A stretch of 64,000 nucleotides of DNA from assembly GCA_963822405.1 (NCBI GenBank), contig CAWGHH010000001.1, positions 151,296 through 215,295 on the forward strand, given 5' to 3'. The notes beneath the pieces were generated by a model. That model did not search any database. It saw only the letters and a program-made list of their open reading frames with translations, and had not been told where the DNA came from. The stretch is from Candidatus Uhrbacteria bacterium. Lineage in GTDB: Bacteria; Patescibacteriota; Patescibacteriia; UBA9934. The translations under genes and the position numbers were made by a program. This document shows positions 30,048 to 31,085 of the stretch, one piece after another. How positions within the stretch are numbered: the first letter of the stretch is position 1; each line of letters opens with the position of its first letter.

Positions 30048-31085
30048 CTAGTGACGATTGCGGAGAAGTCGATAGATCCGGAACCGGGTGTCGTGGTAGT
30101 GGTCGAGGACAAATTCTTTCGCCCTGCGCCACCAGCTCCAGGTGAGCTTGTCGGCTTGGTACAAACGTTCGCCTTCCTCTTGGTCGAGCCTGTCTTGCTC
30201 GAGGTTGCAGGCTTCGCGGTACTCGTCCTCCAGCTTTTGCAGCTCGAGGTAGCAAGTCATGTCGTACCGGAGCTCGTTGAGCCGACCCATCATATGGTAG
30301 GCAAAGCCTGCGGCCTCCCACTCGAGATCGCGCTCGCGGAGTTCTTCCGCGCCTTGAAGGTCGAGTTCGCGGTCGATCTGCTCGGTGCGATTCCACGGGT
30401 CGCGGTAGCTGTCGAGCACTTCCTCCCAATCCCGCCGTTCGATTTCGGTGAGCATCTGAGAAGTTTCGAGTTCCTCTTCCGTGAGGTAGTCGTAGAAGGA
30501 GACAGGGAGATCGTCGAGCGTGCCTTCAAGGTCTTCGTTCCTCCGAAGCAGTTCTTCCTTGCGGATCTGAGGGCTGTCATGCTCCCACTCTTCTTCGGCC
30601 TGGATCTCGAGCTCGGCGATGATCTGCGGGGAGTGGCTGAACTCTAGCCAATCATCATCGCTGTAGTCGTCGGGATCGTCGGCGTACCGCGGGTCGTTGT
30701 AGTCGGGTTCGTTATCCCAACCGTACGCGTCCTCATGGTCCCCGTCGTCGTACTCATTCATGTAGTCTCCGGGGAACATCCGGCGGTTCTCTTCGTCGAT
30801 GGCATCCTCGAGGTCAGCGAATTCACGGTTGAGACCTCGGATGCGCGGGTCATCGCACCGTACCCACTGCTCGTTGACGAGCTTTTCGAAGTGGGAATCC
30901 CAACGGACGAATCCGTCCTCGATCTCGTGGTGTCCGAGATCATCGGCGCCGAAGACTTGGCTTGGCGGATGCTTCATGCTGAGTTCACGGATATCCGTGC
31001 CCTCCCAGACCACAGACGACGTCACTTTCGTATCACCCGGCGCGAAGTCATTCTTGGTCACTTGGACTATACGGTAGCGGGTCAT
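30048..31085 (-). CDS. extremely acidic (D/E-rich) protein, 345 aa (cassette 1)
   Basis: ATG at 31085 with GGAGG 6 nt upstream; long poly-acidic runs such as DDGDHEDAYGWDNEPDYNDPRYADDPDDYSDDDWLEF; visibly GC-rich. Confidence 0.55.
   Translation of the reverse strand: MTRYRIVQVTKNDFAPGDTKVTSSVVWEGTDIRELSMKHPPSQVFGADDLGHHEIEDGFVRWDSHFEKLVNEQWVRCDDPRIRGLNREFADLEDAIDEENRRMFPGDYMNEYDDGDHEDAYGWDNEPDYNDPRYADDPDDYSDDDWLEFSHSPQIIAELEIQAEEEWEHDSPQIRKEELLRRNEDLEGTLDDLPVSFYDYLTEEELETSQMLTEIERRDWEEVLDSYRDPWNRTEQIDRELDLQGAEELRERDLEWEAAGFAYHMMGRLNELRYDMTCYLELQKLEDEYREACNLEQDRLDQEEGERLYQADKLTWSWWRRAKEFVLDHYHDTRFRIYRLLRNRH

Follow-up and report, generated by a model that had tools for sequence, protein, structure and literature searches.

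A highly acidic protein of a Candidatus Uhrbacteria genome belongs to an undescribed family with a conserved N-terminal domain and acidic tails

Introduction

Phages and conjugative elements carry Ocr and ArdA, whose dimers are rigid and shaped like DNA, and the acidic/aromatic C-terminal tails of SSB and T7 gp2.5 compete with single-stranded DNA and recruit partners. Ocr (T7 gp0.3) is 116 amino acids (aa) long, has 34 negative against six positive side chains, and stayed folded throughout charge mutagenesis (PMC3439906). The delta subunit of RNA polymerase joins a folded N-terminal domain (residues 1–90) to a disordered acidic C-terminal region with a net charge of −47 (PMC7749165). DMP12 of Neisseria is presented in PMC3643605 as a DNA mimic that binds HU. 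Here we compare with these systems a 345-aa acidic protein encoded on the minus strand of a 64,000-nucleotide (nt) stretch of a Candidatus Uhrbacteria genome (assembly GCA_963822405.1, contig CAWGHH010000001.1, positions 151,296–215,295; hereafter the window), which a first-pass annotation had singled out as a candidate DNA-mimic or anti-restriction-like factor. We find that it belongs to an undescribed protein family, recognizable by a small conserved N-terminal domain that is usually followed by an acidic tail.

Results

A family recognized by its N-terminal domain

A word-indexed search of 5.8 billion proteins returned only the protein itself and one relative, P0002, with 54% identity over the first ∼107 aa. 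An exhaustive HMMER search of 1.84 billion cluster representatives recovered 74 proteins at E ≤ 1e-3 (61 at E ≤ 1e-10), and in all of these except P0054 the best-scoring match was the N-terminal ∼110 residues. None of the 74 carried a name or a precomputed Pfam domain. Four residues are invariant in the family alignment (A4), namely G29, P40, D79 and R81, and a further 18 positions, many with charged residues, are nearly so; the motifs are a GADxLGHxEIEDG loop and ENRRxFPGD(Y/F) at the end of the domain. The Uhrbacteria protein matches the A4 profile at 6.9e-47 with every invariant and near-invariant residue present.

Going by sequence, the 345-aa open reading frame (ORF) is a real gene, since its N-terminal 110 aa are kept in the 74 cluster representatives and its last ∼122 aa (224–345, including ...LTWSWWRRAKEFVLDHYH...) are 52% identical to P0054 (BLASTP over 122 aa). 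P0054 itself has a degenerate N-domain, and its gene is located after parA-parB.

The acidic tail is a family trait. Among the 71 members with at least 12 residues beyond FPGDY, the first 20 of these residues average 42% D+E, 3% K+R and 12% W/Y/F, and in 54 members they reach at least 35% D+E. Thirty-seven short members consist of the N-domain and an acidic/aromatic stretch only, such as EDDDYEDFDVYDDF, the shortest tails being 13–30 residues long. Long tails (≥90 aa) are found in 23 members, of which 18 carry eight to 30 cysteines in repeated C-x2-C-x4-C-x2-C-(D/E)-P modules and 15 have a basic end (net charge at least +3), often rich in Trp and Arg (...GWWRRALRACKFWR, ...VWWRRALRRWGLLK). The longest tail of all, 237 aa past the FPGDY motif, is that of the Uhrbacteria protein, which has acidic helices in place of the Cys modules.

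The long relatives are of interest in their own right. Up to 30 cysteines are arranged in four-cysteine modules in L011 (5947–6867), P0040, P0035 and P0020, and in P0046 the helix motif ...ERRMFPADF... appears again after the first Cys module. These repeats look like an undescribed tandem metal-binding module.

When 64 family members were searched against Pfam, the matches were confined to fused extras: a double zinc ribbon (in two members), a cold-shock domain and a nucleotidyltransferase domain. The latter two occur in distant members that lack the acidic tail, with either an N-terminal cold-shock domain (P0063, P0066 and P0069) or a Pol-beta-type nucleotidyltransferase domain (P0039). Such fusions may point towards a setting that involves RNA or single-stranded DNA.

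The family is small. A scan of one genome per GTDB species located four loci, one in Candidatus Uhrbacteria and three in Candidatus Saccharimonadia/Saccharibacteria. A metagenome scan added 31 loci, several of them on contigs of 284–675 kb, and the loci examined were chromosomal, with candidate-phyla-like gene content. As far as the organism names of four named contigs go, the family is restricted to Patescibacteria, most of the 74 representatives being without taxonomy.

No match to known families or folds

The first-pass annotation had described a highly acidic protein with interspersed W/Y/F and without evident enzymatic motifs, and both statements stood: the composition is given below, and neither a catalytic motif nor a known family was detected with Pfam, PHROGs, PADLOC or NCBIfam. 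At E ≤ 10, a Pfam-A hmmscan returned a single chance match (Iron_traffic, E = 0.074) and no ocr, ArdA or HARE-HTH model. The best PHROGs match (E = 0.035) was not credible, PADLOC gave no match at E ≤ 0.1, and no NCBIfam model matched. Sequence searches of the PDB with the protein and with the family profile were likewise negative.

Structural searches agreed. The Foldseek comparison of the N-domain model with the PDB yielded no fold assignment (best E 0.33, template modelling [TM] score at most 0.40), and the one with BFVD viral structures gave a best E of 0.024 with a query-normalized TM score (TMq) of at most 0.39. The poor full-length model produced nothing significant, matching generic helical hairpins (ESAT-6/CFP-10 and the Rad50 hook) that are not meaningful. 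Readings of the N-domain motifs as ADP-ribosyltransferase-like (R...S...ExE) or barnase-like were dropped for want of a fold match. We found no relative by tblastn in 50,697 GenBank phage records or 72,556 PLSDB plasmids, no relative in an IMG/VR scan, and no relevant description in the literature on candidate-phyla acidic or DNA-mimic proteins. By these sequence and model comparisons, the family is new and undescribed, and its fold is new as far as tested.

A folded domain, an acidic middle and a basic end

The protein has an isoelectric point (pI) of 4.35 and a net charge of −53, with 94 D+E (27%) against 41 K+R, 3.5% W and 4.9% Y. Across the 59 ORFs of the window that do not overlap and reach 100 aa or more, D+E averages 11.9% (standard deviation [SD] 3.6), and the protein, ∼4.3 SD above this mean, is by far the most acidic. 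Among the six window ORFs with the highest D+E content, the next most negative net charge is −14.

We divided the protein into segments and computed the charge of each (Table 1). The N-domain is predicted with confidence by AlphaFold (predicted local distance difference test [pLDDT] 93.2, predicted TM score [pTM] 0.77) as a mostly beta structure, with a pI of 4.8 and a net charge of −9. The full-length model is poor (pLDDT 44), with residues 100–240 below 50. The predicted first part of the C-terminal module (residues 244–300) has a net charge of −8, and residues 109–311 together carry −49. There are three cysteines and no four-cysteine module, and neither a signal peptide nor a transmembrane helix was found. 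The basic C-terminal segment was rejected as a classical amphipathic membrane helix, as it is not among the windows with the highest hydrophobic moment.

A self-contained transcription unit

The minus-strand ORF opens at 31139 and closes at 30048, and the 345-aa coding sequence (CDS) within it (30048–31085, stop codon included) contains the peptides quoted in the first-pass annotation. A start at the ATG at 31139 would give 363 aa. We take the second ATG, at 31085, as the right start because it has GGAGG 5 nt upstream and coincides with the first conserved residue of all homologs, whereas the ATG at 31139 falls inside a sigma-70 promoter (31147–31119). Two antisense ORFs overlap the CDS (29997–30647, 216 aa, and 30735–31166, 143 aa; both plus strand) and are without homolog support; they are composition artefacts of a GC-rich, GAN-rich coding strand and could mislead gene callers.

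The promoter matches the consensus at 12 of 12 positions and has a TG-extended −10 element. A hairpin terminator begins one base past the stop codon and occupies the 54-nt gap to the convergent isoleucyl-tRNA synthetase gene. With its own promoter, ribosome-binding site and terminator, the gene is a complete monocistronic, self-contained unit. Strong promoters recur in the family: 10 of 30 distinct loci have TTGACAAA followed by an extended −10 no more than 350 nt upstream of the gene. The upstream windows of family genes hold 11 of the 22 occurrences of this string in 254 kb, a ∼25-fold enrichment. Such near-consensus promoters would imply high expression of the family genes.

Within the window, the promoter lies in a 69-nt module whose second copy (32436–32504, 81% identity) precedes another GC-rich orphan ORF, 32066–32425, with a GC content at third codon positions (GC3) of 0.71. 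The extended −35 string TTGACAAAA occurs three times in the 64-kb window, each time upstream of a small ORF; Pfam gave no match for two of the three ORFs, namely the acidic protein and 32066–32425. We also noted that the promoter module TTGACAAAA(T/G)GGCGTTTTTTTGCTATA(A/C)T is reused before several small orphan ORFs (31107–31175, 32436–32504, 36986–37015, 47184–47213 and 49268–49276).

Variable positions and GC-rich silent sites

The chromosomal context of the family varies by lineage. Family genes lie between secE-nusG and HU-LOG, between truB and rpsO, between parAB and relA, between PNPase-subtilase and RNase J, beside glycosyltransferases, and near trigger factor, clpP and rpoB; some sit inside islands of small orphan genes. 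A conserved gene neighbourhood was considered and dropped, as the 27 non-redundant locus groups gave only lineage-local synteny. A class I aminoacyl-tRNA synthetase gene is adjacent in three of the 27 groups, including the window with its isoleucyl-tRNA synthetase, and RNase J in two. As relatives are found at different chromosomal positions in different genomes, this is no syntenic housekeeping gene. The analysis turned up no vehicle of mobility for the family, and the few flanking genes examined in the window included no integrase, transposase or defence gene.

Family genes are GC-rich at silent sites. Over the CDS, GC content is 0.58–0.61 and falls to 0.43–0.49 on either side; GC3 is 0.74, compared with 0.39–0.54 for sampled low-GC (housekeeping-type) ORFs across the window and about 0.49 for the host. 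The gene looks compositionally foreign. Across the family, 17 of 21 distinct loci have a gene with GC3 above the host mean (on average +0.17; Wilcoxon p = 5e-4), and in 13 of 21 it is higher than in every background gene, without significant correlation to host GC3 (r = 0.28, p = 0.22). The excess is alike at four-fold, NNY and NNR sites. Ribosomal protein genes of two loci (L001 and L003) are less GC3-rich, at 0.51–0.66 against 0.79–0.80 for the family gene. Translational selection was rejected as the sole cause of the high GC3, because four-fold and NNR sites are enriched in GC to the same degree and the ribosomal protein genes of L001 and L003 have a lower GC3 than the family gene.

One of the islands deserves description. 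Between rplJL and pyrH (L001, 7663–12669), about nine small orphan genes on one strand form an island that includes the gene for P0002, and L045 has a similar one. The island genes have a GC3 of 0.62–0.91 (8 of 9 at least 0.69), against 0.59–0.66 for ribosomal protein genes, and include internal paralogs: u101 resembles u89, and u128, u134 and u177 are mutually similar.

Surroundings in the window

The flanks consist of ordinary chromosomal genes of a small genome, and the window holds a single copy of the family. Beside the features in Table 1, the gene has an AAA_33 kinase-like protein and RuvA as neighbours; farther out are RNase J, a solute-binding protein, glycosyltransferases, FemAB, a split transketolase, PfkB and VanW. 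SET-domain methyltransferases, one of which is encoded nearby, are uncommon in bacteria. A second tRNA-Ile gene with anticodon UAU lies at 58657–58733, and two such genes are unusual for bacteria.

Two further stretches (1–4000 and 47294–48638) are GC-rich (0.57–0.61 compared with ∼0.48) and carry minus-strand orphan ORFs with a GC3 of 0.76–0.83 where measured. Pfam gave no significant match for any of them; the ORF at 3337–3576, which had sub-threshold zinc-ribbon matches, contains four CxxC pairs and is zinc-ribbon-like. The compositional oddity that these ORFs share with the acidic protein suggests a class of GC-rich accessory genes in this genome. We also observed a 94-nt direct repeat within the GC-rich start of the window (3053–3146 and 3561–3654; 86% identity, 508 nt apart) and a perfect 37-nt inverted repeat (18972–19008 and 61550–61586). 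The arms of the latter are 42.5 kb apart, each in a local palindrome (18936–19045 and 61525–61611), and could be a dispersed repeat or a terminator element.

Table 1. Coordinates of the acidic protein gene, its parts and other features in the window
Feature	Position	Strand	Remarks
CDS, 345 aa and stop	30048..31085	-	pI 4.35, net −53; identical protein P0001 in public collection
Sigma-70 promoter	31119..31147	-	TTGACA-17 nt-TATAAT, TG-extended −10, 12/12 matches; promoter search
69-nt promoter module	31107..31175	-	Repeat search and alignment; second copy 32436-32504, 81% identity
Shine-Dalgarno sequence GGAGG	31091..31095	-	5 nt ahead of ATG; read from sequence
Hairpin terminator, then U-rich run	30004..30047	-	Fold −25.2 kcal/mol, z = −3.97; starts one base past stop codon
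N-terminal conserved alpha/beta domain, aa 1–108	30762..31085	-	Contains loop GADDLGHHEIEDG; ends in ENRRxFPGDY; family alignment A4
Acidic/aromatic patch, aa 109–150	30636..30761	-	18 D/E, 1 K/R and 8 W/Y/F in 42 residues; predicted non-structured; net −17
Acidic region, aa 151–243	30357..30635	-	Net −21; predicted helical, low confidence; SPQI(I/R)..E-rich repeats
C-terminal module, aa 244–345	30051..30356	-	Predicted helical hairpin 245–299 / 302–342, pLDDT 50–75
Basic Trp/Arg-rich terminal helix (predicted), aa 312–345	30051..30152	-	Net +5, pI 10.9; WWRRA motif
Isoleucyl-tRNA synthetase	27123-29993	+	Flanking gene
tRNA-Ile(UAU)	31338-31411	+	Between the acidic protein gene and the SET-domain gene, beside the isoleucyl-tRNA synthetase gene
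SET-domain protein, 173 aa	31486-32007		Next to tRNA-Ile gene; Pfam E = 2.8e-13
GC-rich orphan ORFs	26-769, 1130-1507, 1674-1964, 2389-2643, 3337-3576, 47294-47827, 47982-48638	-	

Discussion

The most economical reading of the acidic protein, which we regard as possible and no stronger than that, is a docking domain whose polyanionic tail would compete for surfaces that bind nucleic acids or polycations, by analogy to the delta subunit and not by homology. Delta is the best-documented precedent, its folded N-terminal domain keeping the disordered acidic region close to the target; the C-terminal tails of SSB and T7 gp2.5 act in a similar manner. The conserved N-domain would dock on a conserved cellular partner; in the predicted structure, its many conserved charged surface residues suggest that this partner is a specific one. 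The tethered polyanionic/aromatic tail would then occupy a nucleic-acid- or polycation-binding surface of the partner or of a neighbour, in competition with DNA or RNA. The basic C-terminal helix might auto-inhibit the protein by folding onto its acidic region, or it might tether the protein to a membrane or to nucleic acid. In favour of a tethered polyanion we count the presence of the N-domain in the 74 cluster representatives and the confidence of its model, the family-wide acidic tail, the basic end of many long members, the charge of −49 over residues 109–311, the pLDDT below 50 of the acidic middle, and the strong promoters of this gene and of the family. The cold-shock and nucleotidyltransferase fusions and the neighbouring genes in various lineages (HU, ParB, RNase J, PNPase/S15 and NusG) count on the same side. 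Taken together, cold-shock fusions and neighbours such as the HU, ParB and RNase genes give a weak indication that the occupied surface may be that of a nucleic-acid-binding protein.

Several points weigh against this reading. The full-length model is of low confidence, and the "disordered" tail is a prediction. Neighbourhoods are not conserved across the 27 locus groups, so that context points to no specific partner, and information-processing neighbours are expected by chance in small genomes. With 74 clusters among 1.84 billion representatives, the family is small and unevenly distributed, which speaks against a core-machinery subunit. The N-domain shows no resemblance to the delta NTD or sigma region 1.1 in Pfam or in Foldseek searches of the PDB. 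Finally, a metal-binding role would account just as well for the many Cys modules and the conserved D/H/E loop.

A farther-reaching version of the tethered polyanion combines it with the genomic observations. Here a self-promoted accessory gene would move among candidate-phyla genomes, keeping its GC-rich composition, and its new-fold docking domain would deliver a nucleic-acid-mimicking polyanion to a core DNA/RNA-binding machine (RNA polymerase, HU or cold-shock proteins) or to a defence nuclease. We think it unlikely that all of this holds; if it did, these ultra-small symbiotic bacteria would have, in this family, their own class of tethered-mimic regulator or anti-defence factor, of a kind not seen before.

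The evidence bears on three other explanations. One is that carboxylate- and His-rich segments, together with the four-cysteine knuckles of the relatives, bind Zn, Fe, Ca, Mg or polyamines, the protein serving as a metal or cation buffer, chaperone or store. The D/H/E-rich conserved loop, the Cys modules in 18 of 23 long-tailed relatives, the double zinc ribbon matches and the family-wide acidic tails are all consistent with it. We nevertheless consider a metal binder unlikely, given that the Uhrbacteria protein has so few cysteines and no module, that no similarity to known metallochaperones or calsequestrin-like proteins was found, and that strongly conserved non-ligand surface residues and the basic terminal helix would be left unexplained. 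That an epibiotic candidate-phyla cell exports the protein as an effector or keeps it as a membrane-associated factor, with the basic helix as anchor or secretion signal and the acidic part acting on the host or at the cell envelope, seems to us the most improbable of the explanations weighed. Basic Trp/Arg-rich C-termini do recur in long members, the P0003/L014 lineage has an N-terminal extension with a hydrophobic segment, and accessory status, patchy distribution, strong promoters and foreign-like composition would suit such a factor. But the Uhrbacteria protein has no signal peptide or transmembrane helix, the short members have no basic helix, the neighbour genes examined include no secretion genes, and the idea draws solely on general knowledge of positively charged secretion signals.

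The remaining explanation is that of the first-pass annotation, in which an acidic surface resembling the DNA backbone would block restriction enzymes or other DNA-targeting defence enzymes, as Ocr and ArdA do, from a self-promoted cassette on mobile DNA. Its extreme charge with interspersed aromatics, its consensus promoter and terminator, its foreign-like silent sites and its variable positions, sometimes in islands of small orphan genes, would all fit, and PMC3902945 describes DNA mimics as too sequence-divergent to find by homology. The part of the proposal that concerned an acquired, highly expressed cassette is plausible in light of the silent sites and promoters of the family, although no vehicle of mobility came to light. 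The assignment to Ocr, ArdA or anti-restriction proteins was not supported by the Pfam searches or the PDB sequence and fold comparisons, nor did the expected homologs in phage or plasmid contexts turn up in the phage, plasmid or IMG/VR collections; PADLOC and PHROG families were equally silent, and integrase and transposase genes were missing from the flanking genes examined. Moreover, it is the N-domain and not the acidic surface that is conserved, the 13–30 acidic residues of the shortest members are too few for a mimic of double-stranded DNA, and the low-confidence full-length model shows no rigid fold for the acidic region. We therefore rate a DNA mimic of this kind as rather unlikely. 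Homology to a syntenic housekeeping protein, named in the first-pass annotation as evidence to the contrary, was not found, the relatives being at variable positions. In a looser form the proposal may hold, with the acidic protein as a putative competitor for surfaces that bind nucleic acids. Whatever probability the tethered polyanion and these three rivals leave goes to something else.

About half of the genes of candidate-phyla bacteria (Patescibacteria) have no known function, and few of their lineage-specific families offer experimental handles. This family offers a small domain whose model is confident and for which no structural relative was detected, a conserved acidic/aromatic tail, modular extensions and near-consensus promoters. 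The modular Cys-rich or helical extensions, together with promoters that would imply high expression, make the family accessible to experiments in the few Saccharibacteria that can be cultivated. In addition, host-independent GC-rich silent sites and a promoter module common to orphan genes may show how accessory genes arise and move in reduced genomes.

Comparison with known systems

Ocr and ArdA share with the Uhrbacteria protein an extreme excess of D/E over K/R, and charge bias is the sole trait in common with Ocr. They differ in that the acidic part of our protein is predicted to be non-rigid (from a poor model), that there is no homology, and that there are no phage or plasmid relatives; in contrast to the carriage of Ocr and ArdA, all examined loci of the family are chromosomal and candidate-phyla-like. 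The resemblance to the tails of SSB and T7 gp2.5 lies in the short family members, which end in D/E runs with aromatics (...DFDVYDDF, ...EQYLDD). The body of the Uhrbacteria protein, unlike those proteins, is not an OB fold and is itself acidic, and its C-terminus is basic. Like DMP12, it is a small acidic chromosomal protein, and one lineage of the family has its gene immediately ahead of that for HU, in the same orientation; yet this adjacency is confined to one of the 27 locus groups, and the sequence matches no PDB chain.

The closest likeness in architecture is to the delta subunit (RpoE) of Bacillota. Like delta, our protein is small and cytosolic and has no catalytic motif, and in each a folded N-terminal domain of ∼90–110 aa precedes a long, strongly acidic region (−47 in delta and −49 here). 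The differences are that the N-domain of our protein is mostly beta and has neither a HARE-HTH match in Pfam nor a Foldseek match in the PDB, that a helical hairpin and a basic terminal helix are added, and that the family is patchy whereas delta is lineage-wide. On the predicted models (pLDDT 93 for the N-domain, below 50 for acidic residues 100–240), the protein would thus have a delta-type architecture by analogy, without the homology. We place it with none of Ocr, ArdA, the delta subunit or DMP12, but in a family that is undescribed. If its tail is a nucleic-acid competitor, the family would represent an independent invention of the delta-subunit or DNA-mimic principle.

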